DNA from: an uncultured Acidimicrobiales bacterium
Lineage (GTDB): Bacteria > Actinomycetota > Geothermincolia > Fen-727 > Anoxymicrobiaceae
Length of the DNA: 64,000 nt
Direction: 5' to 3'
Assembly (NCBI GenBank): GCA_964512645.1
Contig: CAZEJS010000001.1
Span: 64,825-128,824, forward strand
The notes under the pieces: generated by a model
Told to the model about the DNA's origin: nothing
Database searches by the model: none
The model's input: only the letters and a program-made list of their open reading frames with translations
In this document: positions 13,576 through 38,833 of the stretch, one piece after another
How positions within the stretch are numbered: position 1 is the stretch's first letter
Layout of the letters: each line of letters starts with the position of its first letter
Position numbers and translations under genes: made by a program

Positions 13576-13577
13576 CT

Positions 13578-21129: not shown

Positions 21130-22518
21130 TCACGCCGGCGCCGGGCGCCGGGCGTAGTAGGCGCGCATCACCGAAAGGGCCTCAACCGCCTCCTCCGGCC
21201 TCTCGAAGACCGGGTAGTCCATCCTGCCCTGCACGTCCCTGAGGTACTGGCACTGGGACAGAAGGCACAGCGCCACCGGCTTGTCGTGCCTGCGCATCAG
21301 GCGGCCGATCTCCGGGTAAGGCTCGCGCGACATGCCGGCGTAAGCCCCGTCGTACTTGGCGTCGGAACGGCGGAGCAGCACCATCGCCACCCCGTCGATG
21401 TCGTCCTGGCCGAGCAGCCGGTCCAGCGCGTTGAGTATGGCCTCCGTGGAATGGATGTCGCCCAGGTCGAGCGGGTTTCCCAGCCTGATGACGTCGGAGC
21501 GCACGTACTCCCGCAGCCCGGAGACCACCTCGCCGGACAGGGGCGGGAACTCGAAGCCGGCCCTGCAGGCCCCGTCGGCGCAGAGCACCGTGTAGCCGCC
21601 CGCCTGGGAGACCACCGCCACGCGGTTCCCCCTCATGGGGGGCATCTCGAAGGCCCGGGCGAGGTCGATGAGCTTGCGTATCTCCCCGACCCTGATCGCC
21701 CCTGCCTGCCGGAGCGCCCCGTCCAGCACGCGGTCGTCGTTGGCGAGAGCCGCGGTGTGGCTGGCGGCGGTGCGCGCCCCGACCTCGGTGGTGTTGGCCT
21801 TGTAGACGAGCAGGGGCTTGTCCAGGCGCTTCGCCGCCTCGAACAGGTCGCGGCCCCGCACCACGCTCTCCAGGAACATGCAGATTACCCTGGTTCCCTC
21901 GTCCCGCCCGAGGTACTCCAGGAAGTCGAGCTCGTCCATGTCCACCTTGTTGCCGACCGAGACGAACTTGTTGAACCTGGAGCTGCTGTTGTCGAGGAAC
22001 ATGATGAGGCTGACCCCCACCCCGCCGGACTGGGTAATTATCGAGATGCCCCCGGCCTCCCGCTTCTTGAAGGTCAGGAACGGCAGGCAGAGGCCATTCT
22101 CGGCGTTGATGAGGGTAAGGCCGTTGGGTCCGACAAAACGGATGCCGTAAGCGTCGGCCTTCGACCGGATGAGCCGGGTCAGCTCGTCGCCCCCGGGGCC
22201 CAGTTCGGAGAACCCCCCGGAAGGGATGGCCATGAGCCGGATCCCCTTGGCGGCGCAGTCGTCCATCACCGCGGGAACCGCCGTCGCGGGCACGAAAGCC
22301 ACCGCCAGGTCCACTTTCCCGGGGATGTCGCCGAGGCTTTCGTAACCCCGGAGCCCCAGCACGTCCTCGCCCCGCGGGTTCACCGGGTACACCGCGCCGG
22401 CGTACCCCCAGGTGATGAGGTTCTGCACGATGTTGCGGCCCATGTTCCTGGAGCCGGCCGAGGCCCCGACGACGGCCACGCTGTCGGGGTAGAACATCCT
22501 GCGTATGTCTTCGTCCAT
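21130..22518 (-). CDS. Acetyl/acyl-CoA synthetase (ADP-forming) alpha subunit (CoA-binding plus ligase-CoA domains)
   Basis: N-terminal CoA-binding Rossmann region SVAVVGASAGSRNMGRNIV..YPVNP. Succinyl-CoA-synthetase-alpha-like central region. ~460 aa, typical of ACD alpha. Confidence 0.7.
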   Translation of the reverse strand: MDEDIRRMFYPDSVAVVGASAGSRNMGRNIVQNLITWGYAGAVYPVNPRGEDVLGLRGYESLGDIPGKVDLAVAFVPATAVPAVMDDCAAKGIRLMAIPSGGFSELGPGGDELTRLIRSKADAYGIRFVGPNGLTLINAENGLCLPFLTFKKREAGGISIITQSGGVGVSLIMFLDNSSSRFNKFVSVGNKVDMDELDFLEYLGRDEGTRVICMFLESVVRGRDLFEAAKRLDKPLLVYKANTTEVGARTAASHTAALANDDRVLDGALRQAGAIRVGEIRKLIDLARAFEMPPMRGNRVAVVSQAGGYTVLCADGACRAGFEFPPLSGEVVSGLREYVRSDVIRLGNPLDLGDIHSTEAILNALDRLLGQDDIDGVAMVLLRRSDAKYDGAYAGMSREPYPEIGRLMRRHDKPVALCLLSQCQYLRDVQGRMDYPVFERPEEAVEALSVMRAYYARRPAPA

Positions 22519-22709: not shown

Positions 22710-23900
22710 TCAGCCCTCGCCGTCGGGGCCCAGCGACTCCAGGACCAGCGATACCAGGTCCACCACCGGGAGACCGCCGTCCCGCTCCGCGGCGCCGGCG
22801 AGGTTAATCTCGCAGAACGGGCAGCAAGTCACCAGCACCTCCGAGCCGGTCTCCTCCGCCTCCGCCTGCCGGGCCGAGGCGATGTCCAGGGCGACAGAGG
22901 CGTGGCCGGTGCGCAGGCCGCCCCCCCCGCCGCAGCACCGGGAGTTCATGCCGGTCCGGGCCATCTCCGAGACCTCTACGCCGGGCAGGGCCGCGAGCAC
23001 CCGGCGGGGCGCGTCCACCACGCCCCCGTGCCTCGCCAGGTGGCAGGGGTCGTGGTAGGTGACCTTCCGCTCGAGGGGACGGGGCGCGAGCCTGCCTTCT
23101 TCCAGGAGCGAGGCCAGGACCTCCGACATGTGCAGAACCTCGACGTCGAAGGTGGCCACCTTTGGGTACTCGTGCTTCATGATGCCGTAGCAGCCCGCGC
23201 AGGCGGTGATCACCCTGTCCACCCCCAGCGCGTTTATCCTCTCGATGTTCTTCGCCGCCTGGGCGGCGAACACGTCCTTCATCCCCACGCGCATCGCGGT
23301 GCTGCCGCAGCAGACCTCCTCGCGGCCCATTATGCCGAAGTCCACCCCCGCGGCCGCCAGCACCCCGGCGGTGGCCAGGGCCACCTCCTGCATCTCCGGG
23401 AGGTAGGCGGCGGTGCACCCGGGATAGTAGAGCGTGTCGGATTTCTGCTTCGGAAGCACCTTGACGCGGCCCTTGAGCCTGCGCGCCCAGCGGTCCCGCT
23501 GCGCGCGGGGCATCTGCCAGGGGTTGTCGTAGTTCTGCACGCTGCGGACCATCTCCATCTGCGGCTCGAGGGGGCCCCGGCCTTCGCGCACCATCTCGTC
23601 ACGCAGGAGGTTTACCAGCTCGGTGAGCCTGATCCCCATCGGGCACCGCACCGCGCAGGAGTAGCAGGCGGAACAGTAGTAGACGACCTCCGGCCGGAGC
23701 ACCTCTTCGCGGCCGCCGGTGAGCACCAGTCGGACGATCTCCCGCGGCCCGAGGTCGCTGTAGGCCGCAACCGGGCAGGAGGCTGTGCACGTCCCGCACT
23801 GCAGGCACGAGGTCACCTTGTCGCGAATCCCCGAGCCGCCGACGACCTGTTCGAAGAACTCGCCGGTGAACCCGGTCAGGGGCTTCCTCCCGTCGCTCAT
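22710..23900 (-). CDS. HdrD/GlcF-like iron-sulfur protein (two 4Fe-4S motifs plus two CCG domains)
   Basis: CLQCGTCTASCP and CSACYSCAVRCP ferredoxin motifs. CCG-domain cysteines (CCGSTAM, CCGGGGG, CCPFC). ATG 23900 with GGGGAG RBS. Confidence 0.75.
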   Translation of the reverse strand: MSDGRKPLTGFTGEFFEQVVGGSGIRDKVTSCLQCGTCTASCPVAAYSDLGPREIVRLVLTGGREEVLRPEVVYYCSACYSCAVRCPMGIRLTELVNLLRDEMVREGRGPLEPQMEMVRSVQNYDNPWQMPRAQRDRWARRLKGRVKVLPKQKSDTLYYPGCTAAYLPEMQEVALATAGVLAAAGVDFGIMGREEVCCGSTAMRVGMKDVFAAQAAKNIERINALGVDRVITACAGCYGIMKHEYPKVATFDVEVLHMSEVLASLLEEGRLAPRPLERKVTYHDPCHLARHGGVVDAPRRVLAALPGVEVSEMARTGMNSRCCGGGGGLRTGHASVALDIASARQAEAEETGSEVLVTCCPFCEINLAGAAERDGGLPVVDLVSLVLESLGPDGEG

Positions 23901-23919
23901 CCCACTCCCCGCGCCTTTC

Positions 23920-24699
23920 TCATCCCGCCCCGGCGGTCTCGCCCGCCAGGTAGCCCAGTATCTCCGAGCGCAACCGTATGAACTCCCCGTCCGTCCGGTT
24001 CCTGGGGTACGGCTGCGCGTTGGCGAAAGTCCGGACCACACGTGCCGGACGCCCGGACAGCCCGACGATCTCCCCCCCGAGGTAGACGGCCTCGTCCACG
24101 GAATGGGTGACGAAGACCACGGTCTTGCCGGTCTTCTCCCAGAGCTCGACCAGAAAGGCCTGCATGGCGTTCCTGGTCTGAGCGTCGAGGGAAGCGAACG
24201 GCTCGTCCATCAGCAGCACCGCGGGCTCGACCGCCAGCGTCCGGGCGATGGCGACCCTCTGCTTCATCCCGCCGGAGAGCTCCCGGGGGTACAGGTCATC
24301 GTGCCCGGTCATCCCAACGACCCGGAGGTACCCGTCGGCCCTGCCGCGCGCTTCCCGCCGCGACACACCCGCGATCTCCAGGCCGAAGGAGACGTTGCGC
24401 GCCGCGGTGCGCCAGGGGAAGAGCGCGTACTCCTGGAAGACCATCCCCCGCTCCGGGCCCGGGCCCTCCACCGGGACGCCCTCGAAGAGGACCTCCCCGG
24501 AAGTCGGCGCCAGCAGCCCGGCGATCAGCCTCAGCAGGGTAGTCTTGCCGCAGCCCGACGGGCCGACGATGCAGGTCAGGGCCCCTTCGGTCACGTCGAG
24601 ATCGATCCCGTCGAGGACCTCGAGTTCCCTGCCGCTCTTCTGTTCGCTGAACGATTTGCGCAGGCCCCGCAGCGAGAGCAGGGACCCGCCGGCCCTCAT
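23920..24699 (-). CDS. ABC transporter ATP-binding protein (NitT/TauT family)
   Basis: Walker A GPSGCGKTT, ABC signature LSGGMKQRVAIAR, Walker B LLMDEPFASLD. ATG 24699 in an ATGA overlap with the permease stop. The upstream 253 aa of the 512-aa track ORF is artefact. Confidence 0.85.
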   Translation of the reverse strand: MRAGGSLLSLRGLRKSFSEQKSGRELEVLDGIDLDVTEGALTCIVGPSGCGKTTLLRLIAGLLAPTSGEVLFEGVPVEGPGPERGMVFQEYALFPWRTAARNVSFGLEIAGVSRREARGRADGYLRVVGMTGHDDLYPRELSGGMKQRVAIARTLAVEPAVLLMDEPFASLDAQTRNAMQAFLVELWEKTGKTVVFVTHSVDEAVYLGGEIVGLSGRPARVVRTFANAQPYPRNRTDGEFIRLRSEILGYLAGETAGAG

Positions 24700-25448
24700 C
24701 TCCACCTCAACAGCCTCTTTTCGACAATCCTTATCAACCGGTCCGCCAGGAAACCGATCACACCGATGACCAGGATGCCGGCCACCAGCAAATCGAAGCG
24801 CGCCAGGTCGCGGGCGGTCATTATCATGTAGCCAAGCCCGTAGCCGTTCTTCACCCCGATGAGCTCGGCCGCCACCAGGGTCATCCAGGCGATGCCCATG
24901 CCTATGCGCACCCCGGTGATGATGGAGGGAGTGGATCCCGGCACCAGCACCCTCCATAGGATGGTGCCCTCCCGCGCCCCCAGCGTCCGGGCCGCCTCCA
25001 CCAGGCGGGCGTCCACCCCCTTCACCCCCAGGACGGTGTTCAGCACGATCGGGAAGAAGGCCCCCAGCGCGATAATGAACGCGGCGGAGCCCAGCCCGAG
25101 CCCGAACCACACCAGGGCCAGGGGCAGCCAGGCCAGCGGGGGCACCGGCCTGACGACCTCCACCAGCGGGTCCACCGCGGTCTCGAACCACTTCGACCAC
25201 CCCATGAGTATCCCCATGGGGACCGCTATCACCAGGGCGATGCCGAAGCCGGTGAACACCCGCAGGAGGCTGTAGGCGACGTGTCCCTGCAGGTGGTACC
25301 CCCGGGGCAGGCCGGTGGCGGCGAGGTCGTAAAGCCCTTTCAGGACGTCCCACGGCGAAGGCGTCGCCCTCCCCAGCGCCCCGGTCACCGCGAGCGCCTG
25401 CCACACCGCGAGCGCCGCGAGCGGCGAGGCCAGCTTCCACTTCTTCAC
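24696..25448 (-). CDS. ABC transporter permease (NitT/TauT family, SsuC/TauC-like)
   Basis: Six hydrophobic segments and the permease EAA-like loop (LVEAARTLGAREGTILWRVLVP). Confidence 0.8.
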   Translation of the reverse strand: MKKWKLASPLAALAVWQALAVTGALGRATPSPWDVLKGLYDLAATGLPRGYHLQGHVAYSLLRVFTGFGIALVIAVPMGILMGWSKWFETAVDPLVEVVRPVPPLAWLPLALVWFGLGLGSAAFIIALGAFFPIVLNTVLGVKGVDARLVEAARTLGAREGTILWRVLVPGSTPSIITGVRIGMGIAWMTLVAAELIGVKNGYGLGYMIMTARDLARFDLLVAGILVIGVIGFLADRLIRIVEKRLLRWR

Positions 25449-26455
25449 TTGCCGTCACCGGGGATGAAGGAGCTGTCCACCATGGACCTCGCGAAGGCGG
25501 CGGGGTTCTTCTCCTTGATCACCCCCTGCCCGGCCATGAACACGGCGTACTCCCCAATCTTCCTGACGTCCGGCCTGAAAGAGAAGCCGATGTTCTTCAT
25601 CGCGGCCCTGACGACGTCCGTCGGCTGGCCGGTGAACAGGTGCGCCATGTCGGCGGCCTCCAGCCGGTTGTCCCTGATATACCTGGTAGCCTTGACGTGG
25701 GCGGCGACGAAGCGCCTAACCGCGTCGGGGTTCTTCTCGATGAAGGCCGAATCGGCGACCACCATGCAGCACGGGTGGTCCGGCCAGATCTCCCGGGAGC
25801 TCAGAAGCGTCCTCCCCGCACCCTGGGCCCGGGCCATCGACGGGTAAGGTTCCCAGGCGAGGGCCGCGTCAACCTGGGCCCCGGCGAGAGCCGGCAGCAT
25901 CTCCGGGGGCTTGAGCACCGTCTTCCTGACCTGCGAAGGTTCCATGCCCGCCTTCTCCAGCGCGCGATGAAGCAGGAAGTCCTGCACGGTGGAGAGGCCG
26001 GGGACGGCGATCGTGCGCCCCTCGAGGTCGGTAATTTCCTTTACGTCGAGCCCCGGCCGCACTATCAGGGAGGTCCCCCCGGTATTCGCCTGGGCCACTA
26101 TCTTCACGTCGGCCATGCGCTGTCCGGCGAAAGTCAGGCACGGCGCCGTCCCCACGTAGCCGATATCGAGGTCTCCCGCCGAGAACGAACTCATCTCTTC
26201 CGGGCCGGCGTTGAAGGCGCCGCCCTCCCGGATGTCCAGGCCCTGCTCCTTGAAAAAACCTTTCTCTCTGGCGACGTAGAAGGCGAGCTGGTGCAGGTCG
26301 TTCCGCAGGAACCCCACCCTCACCACCCTGGAAGCGGATTCGGAGCCGCCGCACCCGGCGCCGGCGGTCACCAGCGCCCCGAGCAGCACCGCCGCGCAGG
26401 CGCACGCCAGGCACGCACTCGCGGAACGCCATGGTCCAACGCGGGTCTGTTTCAT
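25445..26455 (-). CDS. ABC transporter substrate-binding lipoprotein (NMT1/SsuA/TauA-like)
   Basis: Signal peptide with lipobox-like AGAGC. Periplasmic-binding-protein fold length (~336 aa). Its start overlaps the HdrA stop. Confidence 0.7.
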   Translation of the reverse strand: MKQTRVGPWRSASACLACACAAVLLGALVTAGAGCGGSESASRVVRVGFLRNDLHQLAFYVAREKGFFKEQGLDIREGGAFNAGPEEMSSFSAGDLDIGYVGTAPCLTFAGQRMADVKIVAQANTGGTSLIVRPGLDVKEITDLEGRTIAVPGLSTVQDFLLHRALEKAGMEPSQVRKTVLKPPEMLPALAGAQVDAALAWEPYPSMARAQGAGRTLLSSREIWPDHPCCMVVADSAFIEKNPDAVRRFVAAHVKATRYIRDNRLEAADMAHLFTGQPTDVVRAAMKNIGFSFRPDVRKIGEYAVFMAGQGVIKEKNPAAFARSMVDSSFIPGDGK

Positions 26456-28395
26456 CTCAGCAACCCTTCTATGTTAGCCACTATCTGGCCGTCGTCGCCC
26501 AGTTCCACCCCGGCGGCCCCGCTGAGGCAGGCGGCGGCGCAGACCCCGCAGCCCCTGCAGAGGGCTTCGTTCGCCACCGCAACGCCGTCCTCCAGGGAGA
26601 GCGCCCCGTACGGGCAGGCGGCGACGCATATCCCGCAGCCCCTGCACGCTTCCCGATCGATGACGCAGACGCCGGCGTCGATGGACACCGTTCCGCCGTC
26701 CAGCAGCGCCAGGGCCTCCGACGCCGCGGCAAGCGCCTGGGCGACCGTGTCCGGTATGTCCTTGGGACCCTGGCAGCAGCCCGCCAGGTAGATGCCGTCC
26801 GCCGCCGCTTCCACCGGCCTGAGCTTGGGGTGGGCCTCGGCGAAGAAGCCGTCGGCGCTCCGGGAGATGCCCAGGGTGCGCGCCAGGCCGGCGGCCCCCG
26901 CGTCAGGGACCAGGCCCGTCGCCAGCACCACCATGTCCACCGGCAGTTCCACGGGCCGGGAGAGCAGGGTGTCCTCGGCGAAAACCTTCAGCTCCCCGCC
27001 GAGGCGGGCCACGTCGGCGCACTTGCCCCTTATGAAGTAGACCCCCTCGTCGCGCACCCGTCGGTAGAACTCCTGGTACCCCTTCCCGAAGGCGGTGACG
27101 TCGATGTAGAACTCGCTCACCCGGGCGCCGGTCCTCTCGCGGGCGGTCAGCGCCTGCTTCATCGAGTACATGCAGCAGACCCGCGAGCAGTACTCGTTGG
27201 CGTTCTCGTCCCGAGAACCGATGCAGTGCAGGAAGGCGATCGAGCGCGGCTCGGAGCCGTCGGGCAGGAGGACCCGGCCCCCGGTGGGACCCGAGGCCGA
27301 GAGCATCCGCTCGAACTGCAGGCCGGTGAGCACCTCGGGGTAGCGCCCGTACCCGAACTGGGGCATGGCGGCGGCGTCGAAAACGTCGAAGCCGGTGGCG
27401 ACGATGACCGCCCCCACCTCGATCTCCCGCACCTCGTCGGCCATGTCCAGATCTATCGCCCCGGCGCTGCAGGCCTCCAGGCATTGAGAGGAGCACCTGC
27501 CTTTGGTCACGTACAGGCAGGCCTTCGGGTCCACCGCGGCGCAGGACGGCACCGCCTGGGCGAACGGGATGTAGATCGCCGAGCGTTTCGCCAGGCCGGC
27601 CTCGAACTCGTCGGGTATCCGGCCCGCCAGCACGCACGCCCCCGCGCAGTCGCCGCACCCGGTGCACCGGGCGGCATCCACCCGCCTGGCCCTGGTGCGC
27701 ACGGTCGCGGTGAAGTTTCCGACGAACCCGTCGAGGCTCTCCAGCTCGCTGGTGGTGAGCAGCTCGATCTCCGGGCGCCGCTCCAGCTCCACCATCTTCG
27801 GCATCATGATGCAGGCGGAGCAGTCGAGCGTGGGGAAGGTCTTGTCGAGCAGGGCCATGTGCCCCCCGACGCTGGGGGAGCGCTCCACCAGGTACACCTT
27901 CCTGCCCGCGTCGGCGAGCTTGAGCGCGGCGGTGATCCCGGCTATCCCGGCGCCGAGGACCAGCACCGCGCCGGTCACCGGGAACTCGCGGCATTCGAGC
28001 TCCCTGTGCAGGGCGACCCTGGCCACCGCTCCAGCTACCAGTGAAGCCGCCTTGCGCGTGGCGGCGTCGCCGTCGTCGTGGACCCAGGAGCACTGCTCCC
28101 GGATGTTGGCCATCTCCAGGAGATAGGGGTTGAGGCCGGCTTCCTCCAGCGCGGCTCGGAAGGTGTGCTCGTGCATCCTCGGGGAACAGGCGGCCACGAC
28201 GACGCGGTCGAGGCCCAGCGATTCTATGTCCGACTTGATGAGGGACTGCCCGGCGTCTGAGCACATGTAATCGCAGTCCCTGGCGACGGCAACGCCCGGG
28301 AGCGACCGGGCCCGTTCCGCCAGCGCCGGGCAGTCGACAACGCCGGCTATGTTGCTGCCGCAGCGGCAGACGTAAACACCCGTCCTGCTAGCCAT
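26452..28395 (-). CDS. hdrA: Heterodisulfide reductase subunit A-like (HdrA) FAD/Fe-S flavoprotein
   Basis: N-terminal Cys cluster YVCRCGSNIAG, FAD motif VLVLGAGIAGITAALKLA, inserted ferredoxin CTGCGDCAGAC, C-terminal 2x4Fe-4S (CRGCGICVAACP, CRGCGVCAAAC). ~647 aa. Confidence 0.8.
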   Translation of the reverse strand: MASRTGVYVCRCGSNIAGVVDCPALAERARSLPGVAVARDCDYMCSDAGQSLIKSDIESLGLDRVVVAACSPRMHEHTFRAALEEAGLNPYLLEMANIREQCSWVHDDGDAATRKAASLVAGAVARVALHRELECREFPVTGAVLVLGAGIAGITAALKLADAGRKVYLVERSPSVGGHMALLDKTFPTLDCSACIMMPKMVELERRPEIELLTTSELESLDGFVGNFTATVRTRARRVDAARCTGCGDCAGACVLAGRIPDEFEAGLAKRSAIYIPFAQAVPSCAAVDPKACLYVTKGRCSSQCLEACSAGAIDLDMADEVREIEVGAVIVATGFDVFDAAAMPQFGYGRYPEVLTGLQFERMLSASGPTGGRVLLPDGSEPRSIAFLHCIGSRDENANEYCSRVCCMYSMKQALTARERTGARVSEFYIDVTAFGKGYQEFYRRVRDEGVYFIRGKCADVARLGGELKVFAEDTLLSRPVELPVDMVVLATGLVPDAGAAGLARTLGISRSADGFFAEAHPKLRPVEAAADGIYLAGCCQGPKDIPDTVAQALAAASEALALLDGGTVSIDAGVCVIDREACRGCGICVAACPYGALSLEDGVAVANEALCRGCGVCAAACLSGAAGVELGDDGQIVANIEGLLR

Positions 28396-29713
28396 CGGTG
28401 CCGGTCCCTCCGCGCTCGTCCGTCCCGCGCCGCCGCTCCTCGAGTCGCAGCTCGAAGTACAGCGAAAGAAAACCTGCGGTGAGCTCCTTGAGCATGGTCA
28501 ACAGCGACGCGGCCTCCGCCTGCGACTCCTGGTTCGACCGTACCGCAACGGAAAGCTCTTTAGCAAGGTCGCACGCCCGGGCGTACCCCTCGGCGAGCCG
28601 CTCCAGCTCCGCGCAGGCGCCGAGCGTCCCCCCGGCGGACCGGCGTTCCAGGTACGGCAGGCGGTCCCAGGCGTACTGCAGGAACATCCGTATTTTCTCA
28701 GGCTCCCAGACCTTCACCCCTATCTTCCAGGTGACCTGGGAGCGCTCGAGTCCGTACCCCACGATCCGCGCGTTGGAGACCTGCCTCTTTATCTCCAGGA
28801 GCGACCGGGAGACCTCCGGGCGGCCTTTGCACACCGACGCTCCCCGGCGGGTCGCGCCCCCGCCTGGGGCCCTCGCCCTCCGTGGGGAGGTCCTCCCGCT
28901 GTGCTCGACGAACATCTCCCCCATCAACGCGTTGGCCTCGGGGAAGTGCGGGTGCTCCAGGTGCGGTCCGCTGGCGACGGCGACGCCGTCGCCCAGCTCC
29001 TGGAAGACCACCGCCTGCCTGCCGGCGATGAAGCTCCCGGCGCGCTCGCGCGGCCAGAGGAACGCGGCGCGCGACGCGGCGGAGGCGTAGTCGGCAAGCG
29101 AGCGCGCCTCCCCGGCGGACATCACCGGCCCCCCGAAGAGCGGGGCGGAGATCTCCGCGGCTTCCCGGAACGCCAGCATCCCGGGAGCGGGCCCCCGGGG
29201 GAGGAGCGCGACCTCACCGTACACGGGGTGGAAGACCCACTCCCTCCCGTACGGCGCGAGGTACTTGTGCTCGAGACAGAGCGGCGCGGGCGGGTCATCC
29301 ATCACGTTGAGCATGTCCGCGTCCACCAGCCGGAACGGGGTGAACGGCTCCATGTCAACGCCCCGAAGGACCAGGTAGCCCCCGGCGCAGGAGCCGTGAT
29401 AGAAGCCCCCGCCCCTGACGAACTCCTCCAGGCGCCGGGCCCCGTCGGTGCCCAGGGAGCGGGCCATGGCGTAGGTGTCCCCGCCGCCGACCAGCATGAT
29501 GTCCCTCGTTTCCAGTGCCCCCTCGAGGACGTCATGGTGGGTAAGGAAGCGGACGTCGAAGGTCTCCAGTCTCTCCAGCAGGTCGGCGAACCATATCCAG
29601 GAGTGCGAGGCGCCCTCGCCGCAATAGACCGCCACCCCCGGCTCGCCGGCGAGCCTGGCGGCGAGCGAAGTTAGCGCCCGGTGGCGCGCCGTCCTGGGGG
29701 TACGCCGTTTCAC
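28388..29713 (-). CDS. BPL_N-like (biotin-protein-ligase N-terminal, class-I glutamine-amidotransferase-like) domain protein, function unknown
   Basis: VAVYCGEGASHSWIWFADLLE..IMLVGGGDTYAMARSLG..GGGFYHGSCAGGYL resembles the BPL_N/GATase1-like fold. Helical C-terminal ~170 aa. GTG start 29713 is uncertain. Confidence 0.4.
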   Translation of the reverse strand: MKRRTPRTARHRALTSLAARLAGEPGVAVYCGEGASHSWIWFADLLERLETFDVRFLTHHDVLEGALETRDIMLVGGGDTYAMARSLGTDGARRLEEFVRGGGFYHGSCAGGYLVLRGVDMEPFTPFRLVDADMLNVMDDPPAPLCLEHKYLAPYGREWVFHPVYGEVALLPRGPAPGMLAFREAAEISAPLFGGPVMSAGEARSLADYASAASRAAFLWPRERAGSFIAGRQAVVFQELGDGVAVASGPHLEHPHFPEANALMGEMFVEHSGRTSPRRARAPGGGATRRGASVCKGRPEVSRSLLEIKRQVSNARIVGYGLERSQVTWKIGVKVWEPEKIRMFLQYAWDRLPYLERRSAGGTLGACAELERLAEGYARACDLAKELSVAVRSNQESQAEAASLLTMLKELTAGFLSLYFELRLEERRRGTDERGGTGTDG

Positions 29714-29719
29714 GATCCC

Positions 29720-30988
29720 TCAGCCGAGCATCCCGGCAAGGTCGTCCGGTCCCGCCTCCAGGCCGGCCGCCGGAGCGCAAAGCGCGGCAAGCGCCTCCAG
29801 TTCCACCCCGGACATCAGCAGGAAGGTGGGGCAGACCCCCAGCACGTAGCCGACGCGGTTCGCCCGCGCCCACTCCTCCGCCGAGCCCAGGGGGGGCACC
29901 CAGGAGCCGAAGAGGCCTTCGCGGCCCCGGTCCCCGATCGGCCATGCGGCCTCCGGCACGTCCTCCAGCTCTTTGACCGCGGTCACGATCTCTTCCTCGC
30001 TGGTGAGCGGCGAACCAGCGAGCCGGCGCGCCGCCCGGAGCTGGTCGATCCCCCGGCGGGCCGAGGCCTCCAGGGCCATGCAGGCGGCGGCGGGTTCCCA
30101 CCCGCCCTCCTTCAGCCAGAGGGCCGCAGCGGCCCCGGCTACCAGCATGCCCGGCTCCTCGACGTCCCCGGCCTCCATGACCGAGGGCGCCTCGCGGTAC
30201 TTGGCGAAGGTGGCGCATGCGTAAGGGCACGCGAAACAGGACCTCGTCCGGTGGGCGACCGGCGTCAGCCACCCGTCGAGGTCGGGCGCCCCCAGCCGTT
30301 CGCACAACGCCCGGAACCCCCGGTGGGATTCGACCCCGCCGAACAGGGCGACCGCGCCATCGTAGAACTCCCGGGGGTCGTCGGCGTCTATCATGCCAAG
30401 CCCGCGCACCGCCAGCGCCTTGAGGTTCTTCCGCCCCATGACCGCACCGAGCGCGGCGTCGTCACCGGAACCCCAGTAGTTGTTGGAGATCGACGCCATC
30501 GGCGAGCCCGCCTCGCCGGCGGGACCGATGCAGAGCACCTGTATGAGGCTCTCCCCCATCTCCCGCCTGATCGCGTCGGTGGCATGCCAGGTATCCAGGC
30601 CCCAGAGAGCCGAGGCGTCTTCGATGTCGGGCACCCCGTCGTGGAGCCACAGGTAAACCGGCGAGGCCGAAGCGCCTTTGACCACCACGATCCCGAACCC
30701 CGACAGCTTCATCTCCACGCCCGCGAACAGGCTCAAGGGGGCGACCGCCGGCTCCCCGGTCTGCGGGCTCTTGCCCAGGACGAAACCAAGGCACGACGCC
30801 GGCACCGGCGTGCCGGTGAGCAGCCCGGAGCCGAAGACGAGCGGGTCCGAATCGGCGTGCTTCCTGTAAAGCGCCAGCGCCGCGGCGAGCCCGGGCCCCG
30901 CCTCGTCAGCCTCGTCGAACGGGACCTGCTCGGTGGTACCGGCCTCGAGGTCGACTATGAGCGTGTCCCCGTAATACATGGAGTCCAT
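29720..30988 (-). CDS. Aldehyde:ferredoxin oxidoreductase (AOR)-family protein, unusually short (~420 aa)
   Basis: AOR N-terminal domain (MYYGDTLIVDL..PLVFGSGLLTGTPVPASCLGFVLGKSPQTG), GAVMGRKNLKALAVRG, and the AOR 4Fe-4S motif CxxCxxxC (CFACPYAC). It lacks ~180 aa of the canonical C-terminal domain. Start at ATG 30988 (GAGGAG, spacing 6). Confidence 0.6.
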   Translation of the reverse strand: MDSMYYGDTLIVDLEAGTTEQVPFDEADEAGPGLAAALALYRKHADSDPLVFGSGLLTGTPVPASCLGFVLGKSPQTGEPAVAPLSLFAGVEMKLSGFGIVVVKGASASPVYLWLHDGVPDIEDASALWGLDTWHATDAIRREMGESLIQVLCIGPAGEAGSPMASISNNYWGSGDDAALGAVMGRKNLKALAVRGLGMIDADDPREFYDGAVALFGGVESHRGFRALCERLGAPDLDGWLTPVAHRTRSCFACPYACATFAKYREAPSVMEAGDVEEPGMLVAGAAAALWLKEGGWEPAAACMALEASARRGIDQLRAARRLAGSPLTSEEEIVTAVKELEDVPEAAWPIGDRGREGLFGSWVPPLGSAEEWARANRVGYVLGVCPTFLLMSGVELEALAALCAPAAGLEAGPDDLAGMLG

Positions 30989-30998
30989 TGGCATCTCC

Positions 30999-31349
30999 TC
31001 ACTCGACGTAGAGCGCGCCCTGCGGGCACACGGCCACGCACTGGGGCTCCAGCCCGGCGCTCTCGCACATGTCGCACGCTTCCCTTATCAGGATCGGCTT
31101 GGCCGACGCGCCACCGCCGCCGCCCTTCTGCAGGTCTCCCAGCTTGACGGCGCCCGCGCCCTCCGGCCTTCCCAGGAATAGGTCCTCTCCGGTCTTCACC
31201 ATGAGCCCCATGTAGTTCTTTTTCTCTTCGGCGCGGTGGAGCATGATGCTCGAAGAGATGAGGGAAAACGCCTCGTCCCAGTGGTATCCGCAGACAAGCT
31301 CGCACAGCGCGCAGCCCGTGCATTCCAGCGGCTTGATCTTGACCCTCAC
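30999..31349 (-). CDS. 4Fe-4S ferredoxin-domain protein
   Basis: CTGCALCELVC and CDMCESAG..CVAVCP motifs. 116 aa. Immediately upstream of the AOR-like gene. Confidence 0.65.
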   Translation of the reverse strand: MRVKIKPLECTGCALCELVCGYHWDEAFSLISSSIMLHRAEEKKNYMGLMVKTGEDLFLGRPEGAGAVKLGDLQKGGGGGASAKPILIREACDMCESAGLEPQCVAVCPQGALYVE

Positions 31350-31380: not shown

Positions 31381-32130
31381 TCAGATGGTGTACCCGCCGT
31401 CGACCGTGTAGAGCTGCCCGGTCATGTAGCCGCCCGCCTCGCAGAGAAAGGCGACGAGCCAGGCCACTTCCTCGGGCCTTCCCCAGCGGCCCAGCGGTAT
31501 CGTCTCGAGTATCCTGGAGCGGGTCTCCTCCCCGGTTTCGACCGCCATGTCGGTATCTATGAACCCCGGCACGACCGCGTTCACGGTGATGTTGTAGCGG
31601 GCCAGCTCCCTCGCCAGCGACTTGGTGAAGCCTATCTGTGCGGCCTTGGTGGCCGCGTAGATGGTGTCGCCTGGGTAGCCGGTGACCCCGATGACCGAGG
31701 ACACGTTGATGACCCTGCCCCACCCTTTCCTCTTCATCCCCGGGACGGCGGCGGCGGTTACGTAGAAGCCGCCTTTCACGTTGGTGGCCATCAGCCTCTC
31801 CAGCAGGCCTGCGTCCACCTCCTCGATACGCGCGCCCCGCCATATGCCCGCGTTGTTGACCACAATGTCCACGCCGCCCAGCGCCTCGGCCGCCCGCTCG
31901 ACCAGCGCGGCGCACTGCTCCTCGGATGCGACGTCCGCCCGAACGCACAGGGCGCGCCGCCCTAGAGACTCGATCTCCCCGGCGACACCGAGCGCCAGGT
32001 CCTCGCGCGCCAGGTAGTTGATCGCGACGTCGCAGCCTCTGCGCGCGAGCTCCAGCGCTATCTCGCGGCCCAGGCCGCGCGAGGACCCGGTGATCAGGGC
32101 CGCCCTTCCCTCCAGGTTTTCCATCGGCAT
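31381..32130 (-). CDS. SDR-family oxidoreductase (3-oxoacyl reductase-like)
   Basis: TGSSRGLGREIA cofactor motif, NNAG, catalytic YxxxK (YAATKAA). RBS GGGGAGGG before ATG 32130. Confidence 0.8.
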   Translation of the reverse strand: MPMENLEGRAALITGSSRGLGREIALELARRGCDVAINYLAREDLALGVAGEIESLGRRALCVRADVASEEQCAALVERAAEALGGVDIVVNNAGIWRGARIEEVDAGLLERLMATNVKGGFYVTAAAVPGMKRKGWGRVINVSSVIGVTGYPGDTIYAATKAAQIGFTKSLARELARYNITVNAVVPGFIDTDMAVETGEETRSRILETIPLGRWGRPEEVAWLVAFLCEAGGYMTGQLYTVDGGYTI

Positions 32131-32226
32131 GCCATCACCCTCCCCCGTGGCGCTTGCCCGAGGAGCGCGTTCCATCCCTTCGAGCGGCGGACACGGCCCG
32201 ACCCGCGGGGCCGCAGGGACGATCCG

Positions 32227-33909
<1,683 letters not shown>

Positions 33910-33944
33910 TTCGCCCTCCCCGGCCCGCGGTCCCCCGGACCGCT

Positions 33945-34718
33945 TCACTTTCCCTTGTACTCCGGGTCCCGCTTCTCCAGGAAGGCCTTTACGCCCTCGC
34001 GGCTGTCCTCGGTCCCGAACGTCAGCGCGCAGGCGGCGGCCTCCAGCGCCCCGCCCAGGGGGATCGACGCCTCGGCGGCGGCGTTGACCGCCTCCTTGGC
34101 CAGCGCCATGGCCAGCGGCGCCTTGGAGGCAAGGAGCCCTGCGACCTCCATCGCCTCGTCCATCAGCTTTTCCGCGGGCACCACCCGCGACACCAGCCCC
34201 ATCATCAGCGCCTCGGACGCGTCGACGACGCGACCGGTCAGCACCAGGTCCTTGGCGCGGCCCAGGCCCACTATCTTGGTCAGGCGCTGGCTGCCGGCCC
34301 AGCCGGGCATCACCCCGTAGTTTATCTCCAGCTGGCCGAAGCGCGCCCGTTCGCTGCAGAGCCTGATGTCGCAGGCCAGCGCCACCTCGCACCCTCCCCC
34401 GAAGGCGAAACCGTTGACCGCGGCGAGCACCGGCTTCTCCATCTCCTCCATGTCGCGCAGTATCCTCTGCCCGGCCTGGAGTACGTACTTCGCCTTCACC
34501 ACCGCGTCGAGCTGCTCGAAGCCGGAGATGTCAGCCCCACCGATGAACGATTTCCCCGAACCGGTGAGGACGACGGCCCGCACCTCCGGGTCCTCCCGCG
34601 CCCCGGCGAGCAGCTCCGCCAGCTCGAGCATGTCGTCGAGGTGAATGAGGTTGAGCGGCGGCTTGTCCAGCACCAGGAGCGCCACCCGGCCTTCCCTGCT
34701 GGCTGACCATACTCCCAT
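33945..34718 (-). CDS. Enoyl-CoA hydratase/isomerase (crotonase family)
   Basis: SFIGGADISGF and VNGFAFGGGCEVALACD oxyanion-hole motifs. Confidence 0.8.
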   Translation of the reverse strand: MGVWSASREGRVALLVLDKPPLNLIHLDDMLELAELLAGAREDPEVRAVVLTGSGKSFIGGADISGFEQLDAVVKAKYVLQAGQRILRDMEEMEKPVLAAVNGFAFGGGCEVALACDIRLCSERARFGQLEINYGVMPGWAGSQRLTKIVGLGRAKDLVLTGRVVDASEALMMGLVSRVVPAEKLMDEAMEVAGLLASKAPLAMALAKEAVNAAAEASIPLGGALEAAACALTFGTEDSREGVKAFLEKRDPEYKGK

Positions 34719-34745: not shown

Positions 34746-36281
34746 TCAGACCCCCGCCTGGTCGGCGGATATGCCGTGCCGTCCGGGGTTCATCATGTTC
34801 AGGGGGTCCAGCTCGCGCTTGAGCGCCTTCAGCAGGTCGAAGTACGTGCCCAGCAGGGGCGTCTGCACCCAGCCGAAGCCGGACCTCTCGCCGCCGTAGG
34901 GCCTGTCGAACATGCCGCCAGACTCGCATATGAACGGGATGGCGTCGCGCGCCATGGCCATGCCCTTCTTGATCCCCTCGGGCTCCCCCTGGTTGGGGTA
35001 GGCGTCCATCTCCAGCATGCCGCTCCTTCCGAACTCCAGCGGCTGGAGGTAGAAGGTCGTCTCCTCGAACGGGTACGGCCTGTCGGCCTTCTCCGGGTCG
35101 GTGTCGGCGAAGTTTTTGCGCGCCAGCTTCATGAACTGCCTGGCGAACGTGGCCGCCTGCCCCATGGGGATGTTGAACCAGAACAGCTCGAAGCAGCCGG
35201 AGAGCCTCTCCACCCTGGGGGTGACCTGTATGATCTTGAACACCCGCTTCCACGGCACCAGCTCCTTGAGGAGCTCCAGCATCATGTCCGGCGAAAGCCC
35301 CGCCCCGGTCCTCTCGACGATCGCGTCGAGCTGCTCCCGCCTTATCTCCAGTTCCTCCTCGGTCTCTCCTCCGTAGTAGACCAGGGCGCTCTGCCGGGGC
35401 ATCTGGGCGCGCAGCGTCTCCGCGCCCTCCTGGTTGGGGGTCACGCCGAGGGCGAGATACCCGTCCTGGAACAGTATGGTCTCGAAGCTGCAGTCCTCCC
35501 TGGCGACCTGCCTGAGGAACTCGCTCACCCCGTCCAGGTCGTCCTCGGGAAACTCCGCGGGCATGATCTCCTCGTGCACGGGCATCGGGTAGAGCTGGGC
35601 CACCATCTCGGTGCAGATGCCCATCGTGCCTATCGAACCCTGGAAGACCCCGGAAATGTCCGGGCCCGGGCCTTCGACGCAGATCGGACCGTAGTTGTCC
35701 TGGTGCAGGCAGCCGGTGCGGAGAATCTCCCCGTCAGGCAGCACCACCACCAGGCCCAGTATGGAGTCGGTGCCGACCCCGTACTTGTTGGACACCTGGA
35801 ACACTCCTTTGTCCAGGTAGTTCGCGAGCATGGACACGCTGGCCGGCGCGCTGGGGACCGGGTTGCGCAGGCCCACTTTCTCCACCTCGACATAGACCTT
35901 GCCGAACGTCGCCGCGGGCTGGATGCGGCAGCACATGTTCTCCACGTCGATCTCCAGCACCCTGTCCATCCGCCTCATGTCCACGGTGACTCCGCCCCTC
36001 TGGGGTATGCACCCGCCGCCGACGTTGCCCCCGGTGGACCAGGCGACAACCGGGGCGCCGTAACGCCTCGCGGCTTTGACCACCTTCGCGACCTGCTCGG
36101 TGGACTCCGGAAGGACCACTATGTTCGGGTTGTGAGCGACCTCGAGGCTCTGGTCGCGCGAATACCCTATGAGGATGACCGGGTCGTCGGTGGCCCACTC
36201 GTCGCCCACTATCTTCTTGAGCTTCCCCAGAAGCTCCGTGTACGTCTCTTTCGTCGTGAGGTCTACCTGCTTGACTGCCAT
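34746..36281 (-). CDS. FAD-linked oxidase (GlcD / D-2-hydroxyacid dehydrogenase-like, PCMH FAD-binding)
   Basis: FAD_binding_4-type region (VVLPESTEQVAKVVKAARRYGAPVVAWSTGGN) plus a FAD-oxidase C-terminal domain. 511 aa. Confidence 0.75.
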   Translation of the reverse strand: MAVKQVDLTTKETYTELLGKLKKIVGDEWATDDPVILIGYSRDQSLEVAHNPNIVVLPESTEQVAKVVKAARRYGAPVVAWSTGGNVGGGCIPQRGGVTVDMRRMDRVLEIDVENMCCRIQPAATFGKVYVEVEKVGLRNPVPSAPASVSMLANYLDKGVFQVSNKYGVGTDSILGLVVVLPDGEILRTGCLHQDNYGPICVEGPGPDISGVFQGSIGTMGICTEMVAQLYPMPVHEEIMPAEFPEDDLDGVSEFLRQVAREDCSFETILFQDGYLALGVTPNQEGAETLRAQMPRQSALVYYGGETEEELEIRREQLDAIVERTGAGLSPDMMLELLKELVPWKRVFKIIQVTPRVERLSGCFELFWFNIPMGQAATFARQFMKLARKNFADTDPEKADRPYPFEETTFYLQPLEFGRSGMLEMDAYPNQGEPEGIKKGMAMARDAIPFICESGGMFDRPYGGERSGFGWVQTPLLGTYFDLLKALKRELDPLNMMNPGRHGISADQAGV

Positions 36282-36294: not shown

Positions 36295-37497
36295 TCAACC
36301 CATCGACTCGCGCACCAGCTCGAGTATGTCCAGAAGCTCTATCCTGCCGCCCGTGGCGTCGCCGAGGTTCTGCTCGCAGAACGGGCATGAGGTCACCAGC
36401 GCTTCCGCCCCGGTGCTCATGGCCTCGCGGACCCTCTCCCCCGCGACCCAGAGGGCGAACTCGGGAAACGCCGACTTGACCCCGGCGCCGGCGCCGCAGC
36501 AGAACGCGTTGGCCCTGTTGCGGGGCATCTCGACCAGCTCGATGCCGGGTACCGCCTCGAGCACGCTGCGCGGCGCGTCGTACACCCCGGTGTAGCGCCC
36601 GAGGTGGCAGGGGTCGTGGTAGGTGACCTTTTTCTTCACCGGTTTCTTGAGCTTGATGTCGCCGGAGCGGATGAGCTCGTCGATCAGCTCCAGCGAGTGG
36701 GTCACCGTGGAGGACAGCCCGCCGAACTCCTCGTACTCCTCGCGCAGGATGGAATTGCAGCCCGAGCAGGATGTCACGATCCTCTCGGAGGAGACCGATT
36801 CGAGCGACTCCATGTTCATCAGCGCGCGCTTCCGGTAGGCGTCGTAATCCCCCATCCGCAGGAGCGTGCTCCCGCAGCAGAGCTCGTCCTTGCCCAGCAC
36901 GCCGAAGGGGACACCGGCCTTCAGGAGGATCTCCGCGGTGGCCCTGGCGATCCCCTGCAGCTTCGGGTCGTACGCCGCGGTGCACCCGACGTAGTAGAGG
37001 ACTTCGACCTTCTGCTTCCGCGCGTCGGGGAGCCCCATCTTCTTCATCCAGACGTCGCGCCTCGCTCTCGGCTGCTGCCAGGGGTTGTCGTAGTTCTCCA
37101 TGGATTTGATGAGCGTCTCGTGCTCGGGGAGCGGGGCCAGTTCGTCCCGGAACGCCCTCTCGCGCAGAGCCACGATGGTCTTCAGCGGGTTCTTGTTGCC
37201 CTGGTCCGAGCAGATGACCTGGCAGCCGCCGCACTCGGTGCAGGTGAAGAGCACGTGCTTGAGGGAGTCGCTGTACTCGAGGCTGCCCTCGAGCAGGCCC
37301 CGGGCTATCTCCTGCCTGCCGGAGGCGTAGTAGGCCTCGTACTTGTAGCGCAGCCCCGAGGGGCAGATCCCCATGAAATCGGTGTCGGTTATCTCCTCGT
37401 GGTCTATGTACTTGCACAGCATGCACTTGCCGCAGCGGTACGAGTCCTTCTGGACCTGCAGCAGGGGGTCGTACGGGTTCCTGGTCAAGTCTGACAC
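36295..37497 (-). CDS. GlcF/HdrD-like iron-sulfur subunit (2x4Fe-4S plus 2 CCG domains)
   Basis: CGKCMLCKYI../CTECGGCQVIC ferredoxin motifs. CCG motifs (CCGSTLL, CCGAGAG, CPFCE). Confidence 0.75.
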   Translation of the reverse strand: MSDLTRNPYDPLLQVQKDSYRCGKCMLCKYIDHEEITDTDFMGICPSGLRYKYEAYYASGRQEIARGLLEGSLEYSDSLKHVLFTCTECGGCQVICSDQGNKNPLKTIVALRERAFRDELAPLPEHETLIKSMENYDNPWQQPRARRDVWMKKMGLPDARKQKVEVLYYVGCTAAYDPKLQGIARATAEILLKAGVPFGVLGKDELCCGSTLLRMGDYDAYRKRALMNMESLESVSSERIVTSCSGCNSILREEYEEFGGLSSTVTHSLELIDELIRSGDIKLKKPVKKKVTYHDPCHLGRYTGVYDAPRSVLEAVPGIELVEMPRNRANAFCCGAGAGVKSAFPEFALWVAGERVREAMSTGAEALVTSCPFCEQNLGDATGGRIELLDILELVRESMG

Positions 37498-37498: not shown

Positions 37499-38833
37499 TC
37501 ACACCTCCACTACCTGTCCGGAGTTCAGCATGTCCTCGGGGTCGACGATCTCCTTGAGCCGCCTGAGCATCTTCATGTACGAAGCCTGCTTCTTGAAAAT
37601 ATGGGTCGCGAGCGAGCCGGTGGGGTTGGGGAAGAATGCCCCCTCGTCGGCCAGCTTGACGAGGAGCTCCTTAACCGCGTCCGCCGCGCCGGGCCCGGGC
37701 TCGAGCACGTCGAACTGCAGGTACGCCGAGGCGCCCCTCTTCACGGGGATCACCATCGCCGCCGTCTTTCCCTTGCCTTTGAGCCCCGCTTCGGCGATGC
37801 CCGAGAGCTCCTCCACCCGTGAGAAGCTCGTGTAGAAACCGAAGGAGACTTCGGGCGCGTACCAGGGCCGGCCCAGCGCCTCCCCGGCGGCCTCCGCCAG
37901 CTTCGCCTTGCCGGCGGCCGGCCGGAGCTTCAGCTCGGCGGCCAGCTCGTCGATCCTCTTCTCCTGGTAGGCCACCAGCCGCGGGCTGCCCTCCAGTCCG
38001 AATACGACCGTCCACGCGGAGAGCCCGGCGTCCTCGCCCATTACCTCGACGGCCTTGGCCTTGCTCAAGACCAGTATCTCGGTACCCACCTCGGACCTGG
38101 CGCACCTCCGGGCCAGGGAGCAGGCCTGCCCGCGGGTCGTAAAACCTCTCACGGCGACACCGCTGTCCTCGGGCTCGGGGTACAGGAACACGAAACCTCC
38201 GAGGGGTATCCCGAAGGAGTTGCGCGAGCCGGTGAAGACCTTGCTGATGTTGGGCCCGCCGTCCTCCCGCCAGTGGGTGGTGGAGTTCGGGAGGGCGTCG
38301 GAGCCGGAACGGTATTCGCGCCCGTCGGCGAGCATGGCGTGGAAAGTCGCCAGTTGCCGGTTGGTGAAACGGTTCGCGGCCAGAACCACCTCGCGTTCCA
38401 GCGCGCTTTCCAGGATGTAAGGGGAGCGCGCCGCCGCCGGCAGCGCCACCCTGACGCCGGCCGCCGCCAGCTCGGGCAGGGCCTGCTCCCATGTCACCCC
38501 GGGCTGAACGTGCAGGTACAGGTTGGTGGCGTCGATGGACTCGATCTTGCACATGTTTCTGAAATCGACCACCACCCCCGGCCTCGCGGGGGCGAGCCCC
38601 CACGGCAGGGGGGTGTAGACCGACAGGCCGTACGCCCTGGCCACGGAGAGTACGTGTTCGATGTCCGTCCGCCCCCGGGGGTAGACCACGCAAATCACGT
38701 TCCCTGCCGGATGGCCGTCCTCGAGGTACGACGCGATGGTCGCCTCGTCATCGGAGAACCGCCTCGGGTCCACCATGATCTCGCGCAGTCTCGCCCTGGC
38801 GAACGCCGGGTCGGGTCCGCTCCTCGCTGCCAT
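37499..38833 (-). CDS. FAD-binding oxidase subunit (GlcE-like)
   Basis: PCMH-type FAD-binding N-terminal region (VICVVYPRGRTDIEHVLSVARAYGLSVYTPLPWG). ATG 38833 with AAGGAGG RBS. The stop lies 1 nt before the GlcF-like start. Confidence 0.6.
   Translation of the reverse strand: MAARSGPDPAFARARLREIMVDPRRFSDDEATIASYLEDGHPAGNVICVVYPRGRTDIEHVLSVARAYGLSVYTPLPWGLAPARPGVVVDFRNMCKIESIDATNLYLHVQPGVTWEQALPELAAAGVRVALPAAARSPYILESALEREVVLAANRFTNRQLATFHAMLADGREYRSGSDALPNSTTHWREDGGPNISKVFTGSRNSFGIPLGGFVFLYPEPEDSGVAVRGFTTRGQACSLARRCARSEVGTEILVLSKAKAVEVMGEDAGLSAWTVVFGLEGSPRLVAYQEKRIDELAAELKLRPAAGKAKLAEAAGEALGRPWYAPEVSFGFYTSFSRVEELSGIAEAGLKGKGKTAAMVIPVKRGASAYLQFDVLEPGPGAADAVKELLVKLADEGAFFPNPTGSLATHIFKKQASYMKMLRRLKEIVDPEDMLNSGQVVEV

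Follow-up and report, generated by a model that had tools for sequence, protein, structure and literature searches.

An intact short branch of the aldehyde:ferredoxin oxidoreductase superfamily encoded between a ferredoxin and a glutamine-amidotransferase-like protein

A reading frame of about 420 amino acids (aa) that carries the N-terminal domain and the cluster motif of an aldehyde:ferredoxin oxidoreductase (AOR) raises the question of whether it is a broken gene, half of a split enzyme, or a complete protein of another kind. Such a frame lies on the minus strand, at 29720..30988, of a 64,000-nucleotide stretch (hereafter the window) of contig CAZEJS010000001.1, from an uncultured Acidimicrobiales bacterium (assembly GCA_964512645.1). 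The initial annotation offered three explanations, in which the frame is a novel minimal subunit related to AOR, what remains of a pseudogene, or one half of an enzyme that has been split. The analyses reported here support the first, and sharpen it to a discrete family with internal deletions, obligate partner genes and, as far as the alignments indicate, lost metallopterin-binding and catalytic residues. The AOR/WOR family is defined by W-bis-metallopterin, and its occurrence in a genome is used as a marker that tungsten or molybdenum is employed. Our best reading, held with moderate confidence, is that the product is an intact mini-AOR, likely without tungstopterin, which would act as the iron-sulfur subunit of a new redox module together with a ferredoxin, a BPL_N-like protein and HdrA.

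The longest reading frame extends over 29720..30994 of the minus strand and encodes 424 aa from its first ATG. The upstream sequence reads TGA-GGAG-ATGCCA-ATG, i.e., the stop codon of the ferredoxin gene followed by a Shine-Dalgarno GGAG 6 nucleotides (nt) before the ATG at 30988. Given this spacing, the homologues that begin with MDSMYYG, and the 422-aa gene calls made in other, independent assemblies, the ATG at 30988 (with the stop at 29720) is the best gene model, and the coordinates annotated initially are favoured over the longer frame. Residue numbers in this text are counted from the ATG at 30994. The 422-aa product, named here sAOR (short AOR-like protein), comprises an AFOR_N domain, a reduced remnant of domains 2/3, and the cysteines C253, C256, C260 and C388. 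AFOR_N (Pfam PF02730) covers residues 11-198 with an E-value of 1e-42 (profile positions 3-198 of 199). AFOR_C (PF01314, domains 2/3) has no match at E<=0.01, its homology being remote, detected by profile-profile alignment alone, and interrupted by large deletions. The NCBIfam AOR model matches partially, with 93 bits against a cutoff of 868, and no model in the NCBIfam scan of sAOR is at or above its cutoff. The N-domain, the GAVMGRKNLKALAVRG stretch (residues 183-198) and CFACPYAC (253-260), all named in the initial annotation, are seen by Pfam and in the translation.

The length of the protein is conserved. A word-indexed search of NCBI, JGI, ENA and Logan assemblies yielded homologues of 419-431 aa in more than 50 clusters, with 56-96% identity, 97-100% coverage and AFOR_N only. 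Further clades of about 435 aa and about 501 aa were found by the same search at 38-40% identity. When 1.84 billion representatives were scanned exhaustively with HMMER, 4002 AOR-superfamily proteins were returned. The first 55-60 or so representatives (50%-identity clusters, mostly of 340-502 aa, with a few shorter apparent fragments) align over the whole query, after which the score drops to about 127 bits and full-length AORs (about 600-680 aa) are aligned to residues 47-210 alone. Given this drop, and the passage from whole-length to partial matching, the short proteins form a discrete family. It is conserved across bacteria and archaea, and was studied in a set of 88 related loci from Actinomycetota, Thermodesulfobacteriota and archaea. 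The AlphaFold2 model of the monomer, built from a 116-sequence alignment, is compact, with a predicted local distance difference test score (pLDDT) of 94.9 and a predicted template-modelling score of 0.94. When 51 full-length AORs were searched against the window with tblastn, the significant matches fell only inside the ORF (open reading frame), with no AFOR_C remnant elsewhere in the 64 kb, in line with the initial remark that no frameshift or downstream continuation was visible. The C-terminal parts of the same AORs, used against the 88 loci, detected no AFOR_C remnant in them. The ORF is an intact member of a widespread, conserved branch of the AOR/WOR superfamily, and not a broken gene.

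In the source databases, the homologues are named after the domain only, or as "aldehyde:ferredoxin oxidoreductase", the latter being the label in NCBI and JGI. We found no description of a short or truncated AOR branch in the searchable literature, nor a characterisation of short homologues with another function, and a 2025 review of tungstoenzymes mentions no such short clade (PMC12096430). While the AOR superfamily itself is known, this branch thus appears to be uncharacterised so far.

In comparison with the Protein Data Bank, the sole significant Foldseek matches of the sAOR model are AOR-family chains, namely 1aor, WOR1, C. autoethanogenum AOR, A. aromaticum AOR, BamB, FOR and WOR5. The match to 1aor has an E-value of 7e-27 and a template-modelling (TM) score of about 0.77 when normalised to the query and about 0.55 when normalised to the target. 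These values indicate sAOR is a reduced version of the AOR fold. Aligning a profile of 37 short sequences with one of 47 full-length AORs (hhalign) gave a probability of 100 and an E-value of 2.6e-65, with query columns 5-432 placed on template columns 7-549 of 644. The shortening has three sources in this alignment: a shorter linker after the N-domain, a large gap at about template columns 394-490, and the absence of the last 95 or so columns. The initial annotation stated that the protein stops about 180 aa early. It is indeed about 180 aa short, yet the shortening is mostly due to internal deletions, which remove about 115 residues, and about 95 residues are missing from the C-terminus. The N-domain of AOR is kept, as is the core of domains 2/3; the clade of the window protein has also retained the four [4Fe-4S] cysteines. 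Homology and its reduced fold place sAOR in the AOR superfamily, yet the hallmarks of the functional family, i.e., AFOR_C at threshold, the cofactor ligands and the second-shell residues, are missing from it.

The residues concerned were identified by a column-by-column contrast of 66 short and 50 full-length sequences. The near-invariant replacements, from full-length AORs to sAOR, are R to L69, R to G175, A to S176, G to D178, D to Y383, and the motif PEYE to EEPG. The ligands of the bis-metallopterin cofactor and its Mg are reported to be R76, R182, D338 and D489 in the numbering of the Pyrococcus furiosus enzyme (Chan et al., 1995). By this numbering, R76 corresponds to L69, R182 to G175 (inside a new NYWGSGD motif), and D489 to Y383. 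D338 falls on A312, a variable position, when the hhalign consensus is read; this mapping is alignment-dependent and lies outside the contrast list. The PEYE motif (Glu311/Tyr312/Glu313) becomes EEPG(M/L), with Glu313 placed on G282 by hhalign or on L284 by MAFFT; residue mapping in the C-terminal half rests on remote alignments, and the two programs are two positions apart around this motif. In addition, at least 90% of the short sequences have gaps at 26 columns whose conservation in full-length AORs is at least 80%. They include a conserved histidine and a C-terminal block of N/G/D/P/R/YY/GW/G/P, and 12 highly conserved columns lie within the missing 95 or so C-terminal residues. The histidine, which 86% of full-length AORs have, belongs to a block that is absent from the short family; it is probably His448, and Tyr427 was probably deleted along with it. 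Thr243, Glu313, Tyr427 and His448 are conserved second-shell residues of aldehyde-oxidising AORs (PMC12096430).

The replacing residues are themselves conserved: L69, P86, Y173, W174, D178, H248, R249, Y383 and G386 are almost universal across the 88 loci, which come from three phylum-level groups. Given this near-universality, what was once the cofactor pocket has not decayed; it was remodelled, and selection acts on it. The alignments thus indicate the loss of canonical metallopterin-binding and catalytic residues, and sAOR may well be a protein without metallopterin.

The cluster site has a different distribution. C253, C256 and C260 align with C288, C291 and C295 of 1aor, the P. furiosus AOR, and C388, within YVLGVCPTF, aligns with the invariant distal cysteine of the D-x-x-G-L-C motif. 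This distal cluster cysteine is presumably Cys494 of the P. furiosus enzyme, in AOR domain 3, again in the numbering of Chan et al. (1995). Two main ligand patterns are present among the 88 loci, besides a few others: C-C-C-C in Actinomycetota, most archaea and the 501-aa clade, and C-T-T/S-H in the Thermodesulfobacteriota clade of about 435 aa. In the latter (loci L004, L025-L028, L031-L033, L035, L038-L041, L045-L051 and other Thermodesulfobacteriota loci), C253 is kept, C256 is replaced by T, C260 by T or S, and C388 by H; the ferredoxin of this clade retains all 8 cysteines. This joint loss supports the four residues forming one cluster where they are present. The homologue of Desulfosarcina cetonica JCM 12296 (L069) has no cluster cysteines (A-T-Y-D). 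Desulfomonile also carries an sAOR gene, seen only in a metagenome-assembled genome.

The gene that precedes sAOR on the same strand (30999..31349) encodes a ferredoxin of 116 aa (Pfam Fer4_9) with 8 cysteines in two [4Fe-4S] motifs, and its stop codon lies 10 nt from the sAOR ATG, as the initial annotation had reported. A ferredoxin gene is found directly upstream of sAOR in all 84 loci with enough flank, its 8 cysteines being universal, together with several family-specific residues. It looks like a form of the partner subunits of AorA/BamC/HycB type that has only two clusters. Between Actinomycetota and either archaea or Thermodesulfobacteriota, the ferredoxin is better conserved (about 40-55% identity) than sAOR (about 35-42%). 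Its invariant residues other than cysteine, K43, Y46, K52, R61-P-E-G64, K84-P85 and R89, are situated in a long insert between the cluster motifs.

On the other side of sAOR, a BPL_N-like gene (28388..29713, minus strand) is located, and such a gene is directly downstream in 60 of 76 loci. Its 441-aa product contains Pfam BPL_N at residues 27-116, and combines an N-terminal class I glutamine-amidotransferase-like fold with a C-terminal helical bundle. The AlphaFold model (pLDDT 91.7) is matched by Foldseek to GH42 domain B, Pdx2, HisH, TrpG and ThuA. The elbow G107-S-C109-A-G111 aligns with the peptidase E nucleophile. Six residues (C109, H37, H162, H251, E253 and H254) are universal, and both the elbow and H251-L-E253-H254 are invariant. 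The protein shares the BPL_N domain, a putative nucleophile elbow and the fold matches with the class I glutamine-amidotransferase-like, BPL_N and peptidase S51 proteins. Unlike peptidase S51, it has cysteine in place of serine and the extra invariant H37, H162 and H254. In comparison with the class I glutamine-amidotransferase-like fold, the helical bundle of about 140 aa is without match, and the protein is always encoded after sAOR.

These genes are tightly packed. The gaps are of 10 nt between ferredoxin and sAOR and of 6 nt between sAOR and the BPL_N-like gene, which overlaps the HdrA gene by 8 nt; the latter overlaps the SsuA-type gene by 4 nt. The HdrA product (26452..28395, minus strand, 647 aa) is a flavo-iron-sulfur protein which matches model NF040770 (HdrA2) over model positions 1-640 of 777 with 818 bits, below the cutoff of 1100; it is HdrA-like, and not the curated equivalog. 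It is followed on the minus strand by an SsuA-family ABC substrate-binding protein (25445..26455), and then by permease (24696-25448) and ATPase genes. An SsuA-family gene of the aliphatic sulfonate type also accompanies sAOR in distant clades (L075, L079, L081, L082 and L024), including Geothermincola loci without HdrA. WOR5, an enzyme of the AOR family, now bears the name aliphatic sulfonate:ferredoxin oxidoreductase (PMC12096430); a sulfonate link of sAOR is conceivable. After the transporter, the minus strand encodes a second HdrD-like protein (22710..24041; Fer4_8 and two CCG domains in the domain scan) and an ADP-forming acyl-CoA synthetase-like protein (21130..22518; CoA_binding and Succ_CoA_lig), the gene of which is also found in L003. 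L003 has this pair (21130-24041) in synteny, and the operon may reach as far as these two genes.

Upstream of the ferredoxin, on the same strand, the order is TetR, B12-binding subunit, MeaB, FAD_binding_4, CCG/HdrD-like, FAD_binding_4, enoyl-CoA hydratase, mutase large subunit and SDR (short-chain dehydrogenase/reductase). The SDR (31381..32175), similar to 3-oxoacyl/acetoacetyl-CoA reductases, lies 31 nt upstream of the ferredoxin gene. Further away are the large subunit of an acyl-CoA mutase (32227..33930; MM_CoA_mutase N-terminal domain), an enoyl-CoA hydratase of the crotonase family (33945..34718), a GlcD-like FAD_binding_4 flavoprotein of 511 aa (34746..36281), a 400-aa HdrD/TfrB/GlcF-like Fe-S protein with CCG domains (36295..37497), and a second FAD_binding_4 protein of about 444 aa (37499..38833). 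The latter has no NCBIfam match, and its domain was assigned from the syntenic orthologues in L001 and L003. The series ends with MeaB, the GTPase chaperone of B12 mutases (38999..39964), the B12-binding small subunit with its GLDGHDRG motif (39961..40398) and, upstream of it, the TetR regulator (40355-40975). Other metagenome-assembled genomes of Actinomycetota show the same order throughout the operon.

GlcD models cover just the FAD-binding half of the 511-aa flavoprotein, whose syntenic orthologues have FAD_binding_4 without a match to FAD-oxidase_C; the substrate domains of both flavoproteins appear divergent. About 18 kb from the operon, a second large subunit of the methylmalonyl-CoA mutase family is encoded on the minus strand (11917-13998; Pfam E 4e-217). 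An acetone or 2-hydroxyisobutyryl-CoA pathway, suggested by the likeness of the B12 mutase, MeaB and SDR to proteins of Desulfococcus biacutus and of D. cetonica, itself the carrier of an sAOR homologue, was considered and dropped. The acetone-induced cluster lists no AOR-like, BPL_N or GlcD/CCG proteins (PMC7888143, PMC4103992). No enzyme dependent on thiamine diphosphate (TDP) is among the annotated genes of the window, and the D. cetonica sAOR locus holds genes other than those of the acetone cluster.

The surroundings of sAOR vary among clades. A CCG or FAD_binding_4 gene is nearby in 63 of the 88 loci, HdrA in 15 (mostly Actinomycetota), and the B12 mutase set also in 15. In Thermodesulfobacteriota, the trio of ferredoxin, sAOR and BPL_N is followed by genes for a multihaem cytochrome c, a cytochrome b, a NarI-like protein and CCG proteins; opposite it, a divergently transcribed operon carries GntR, aldehyde dehydrogenase, GlcD-like and CCG genes. 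To judge from the gene content, this arrangement would correspond to a Tmc/Hmc-like transmembrane layout. The 501-aa clade has no BPL_N, and its gene sits between a FAD_binding_4/CCG/FAD_binding_4 series and a family III CoA-transferase. The proteins of this clade (501-503 aa; L005, L006, L030, L034, L036, L037, L043 and L044) have two insertions, a C-terminal extension of about 40 aa and a faint AFOR_C match, and may represent an intermediate stage of reduction. In D. cetonica (L069:7326-9337), the acyl-CoA synthetase gene directly after sAOR is split into two overlapping ORFs for the N- and C-terminal parts of AMP-binding, which is either a draft-assembly frameshift or a real disruption.

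In Methanomassiliicoccales, the ferredoxin-sAOR pair stands alone. All four cysteines are present in the archaeal pairs (L067, L073, L078 and L085 from Methanomassiliicoccales, in addition to L023 and L029). The archaeal pair is located between genes which were read from the sequence as pyrB-pyrI and a P-loop kinase-like gene. Given the lack of BPL_N, HdrA and dehydrogenase genes nearby, this looks like a housekeeping-type context.

Among known systems, the tungsten AORs and WORs (1AOR; WOR1, 9MQX; A. aromaticum AOR, 8C0Z) are homologous to sAOR over its whole length and share with it AFOR_N and the four-cysteine [4Fe-4S] site. AorAB, Wor1LS and Wor5LS also have a ferredoxin-type partner gene directly upstream. 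The sAOR system differs from these in its length, in the replaced equivalents of R76, R182, D489 and Glu313, in the deleted conserved-His block and in the missing Pfam match to AFOR_C, and also in having a partner ferredoxin with 2 clusters instead of 4, beside a glutamine-amidotransferase-like third gene product. Class II benzoyl-CoA reductase (BamBCDEFGHI) has a similar parts list: an AOR-fold subunit, its own ferredoxin, HdrA-like and HdrD-like CCG proteins, beside enzymes of CoA esters. The HdrA-like protein and the CCG proteins (36295-37497 and 22710-24041) that a Bam-type complex requires are present in the same operon. As for MvhD-like and NuoEFG-like proteins (BamF, BamGHI), none was noted among the annotated window genes, where no search was aimed at them. 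BamB also is without the AOR second-shell residues (PMC12096430); however, it is of full length (653 aa), unlike sAOR, it binds W-bis-metallopterin (W-bis-MPT) with a cysteine ligand, and HdrA accompanies sAOR in only a minority of loci. The likeness to class II benzoyl-CoA reductase is one of architecture, not of membership. P. furiosus WOR4 and E. coli YdhV have deviating cluster or second-shell residues, and no known aldehyde oxidation, as does sAOR; both are nevertheless of full length and contain the metallopterin cofactor, the binding residues of which sAOR is without.

In the preferred reading, sAOR most likely no longer carries tungstopterin. It would pair as a heterodimer with the product of the ferredoxin gene 10 nt upstream, as in AorB-AorA, BamB-BamC and Wor5L-Wor5S, and the co-translated BPL_N-like protein would also associate with it. 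Electrons might pass, in either direction, between HdrA, the 2x[4Fe-4S] ferredoxin, the sAOR [4Fe-4S] cluster and a remodelled site. Residues of the former pterin pocket (L69, Y173-W174-x-x-x-D178, H248-R249, Y383) would make up this site together with the Cys109/His cluster that the BPL_N-like subunit contributes. In the source organism, the module may be one arm of an HdrA/HdrD-like/GlcD-like redox system, whose operon would serve to import an organic acid (SsuA-type ABC transporter) and to break it down at the level of its CoA ester (B12 mutase, MeaB, enoyl-CoA hydratase, SDR, acyl-CoA synthetase). The synteny of the partner genes holds as observed; the absence of pterin, the physical complex, the electron path and the substrate class are inferred.

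Four points weigh against this reading. The Methanomassiliicoccales pair occurs alone, which indicates the proposed operon-specific role does not generalise. Given that three of the four ligands are replaced together in Thermodesulfobacteriota, a cluster electron relay cannot be the family-wide role. The resemblance of the ferredoxin to the first and last cluster motifs of the HycB/AorA/BamC-type four-cluster subunits is weak (PDB, E of about 0.1). Finally, the cores of both pterin-loop motifs are retained, as G-x-D (G315, D317) and G-x-C (G386, C388), and together with the strongly conserved pocket they may leave room for a non-canonical pterin or another cofactor.

The alternative that survives best, although we regard it as unlikely, is that sAOR is a non-redox subunit of structural, regulatory or assembly type, a degenerate scaffold for the ferredoxin and the BPL_N-like protein, with catalysis wholly in the partners. 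The loss of catalytic residues and cofactor ligands is what such a scaffold would show, and both the family and its partners persist in the Thermodesulfobacteriota clade that lost the cluster ligands, with a plausible Cys-His-Glu site being available on the BPL_N-like partner. Yet a scaffold does not account for the strict conservation of family-specific residues at the former active site (Y173, W174, D178, H248, R249 and Y383), nor for all four cluster cysteines being kept in the Actinomycetota, archaeal and 501-aa clades, and the archaeal pair occurs without any BPL_N to hold.

Slightly less probable again is that sAOR still binds a W or Mo metallopterin, with one or two pterins, through non-canonical residues, and is itself the catalytic oxidoreductase subunit, for aldehydes or other substrates. 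The overall AOR fold is retained, the loop cores are conserved along with the [4Fe-4S] site beside the former cofactor position, and the remodelled pocket is nearly invariant across phyla, as expected of a ligand-binding site. The redox gene context (ferredoxin, HdrA, cytochromes) fits as well. This has to be set against the replacement of the R76, R182 and D489 equivalents by L, G and Y, the loss of Glu313 and the deletion of the conserved-His block. The C-terminal residues with their 12 conserved columns are also gone, no AFOR_C Pfam match is left, and one large clade has even lost the adjacent cluster ligands.

That sAOR is half of a split AOR, with the pterin-binding part on a separate polypeptide, is very improbable. 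The length deficit and the tight operon with an uncharacterised 441-aa protein could suggest a split. However, this downstream protein has a class I glutamine-amidotransferase-like fold and a helical bundle, not AFOR_C, and AFOR_C-like sequence is absent from the window and from the 6-10 kb around sAOR in the 88 loci. Moreover, the missing residues are mostly internal deletions, and not a detachable terminal domain. As for a pseudogene remnant, or an assembly or sequencing frameshift in a full-length AOR, its unusual length is all that speaks for it, and it is refuted by length, termini and residues conserved in more than 50 clusters from independent assemblies (NCBI, JGI, ENA and Logan) and across bacteria and archaea, by the confident, compact fold model and by the lack of an out-of-frame continuation.

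The preferred reading can be taken further, and in this bolder form we offer it as a tentative proposal. The ferredoxin, mini-AOR and glutamine-amidotransferase-like proteins would then constitute an unrecognised tungsten- and pterin-free redox enzyme, with an active site made from the remodelled AOR pocket and the Cys/His site of the partner. In Actinomycetota, an HdrA-based electron-bifurcating complex comparable to class II benzoyl-CoA reductase might contain this enzyme as its low-potential arm, with an organic acid taken up by the cell, or its CoA ester, as the substrate. In Thermodesulfobacteriota, the enzyme might be plugged into a Tmc/Hmc-like transmembrane cytochrome complex.

If the preferred reading is true, the family represents the reuse of an enzyme fold under strong selection and with dedicated partners, whether as an electron-transfer or scaffold subunit or as the shell of a new active site. 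Surveys that count AFOR_N matches as tungstoenzymes would then over-count. The module is present in at least 80 species representatives, possibly up to 338, among anaerobic Actinomycetota, relatives of sulfate reducers, syntrophs and methanogenic archaea. Given its linkage with HdrA, with HdrD-like proteins and with multihaem cytochromes, it may be a node of anaerobic energy metabolism that has gone unrecognised, and likewise one in the breakdown of organic acids and of CoA esters.

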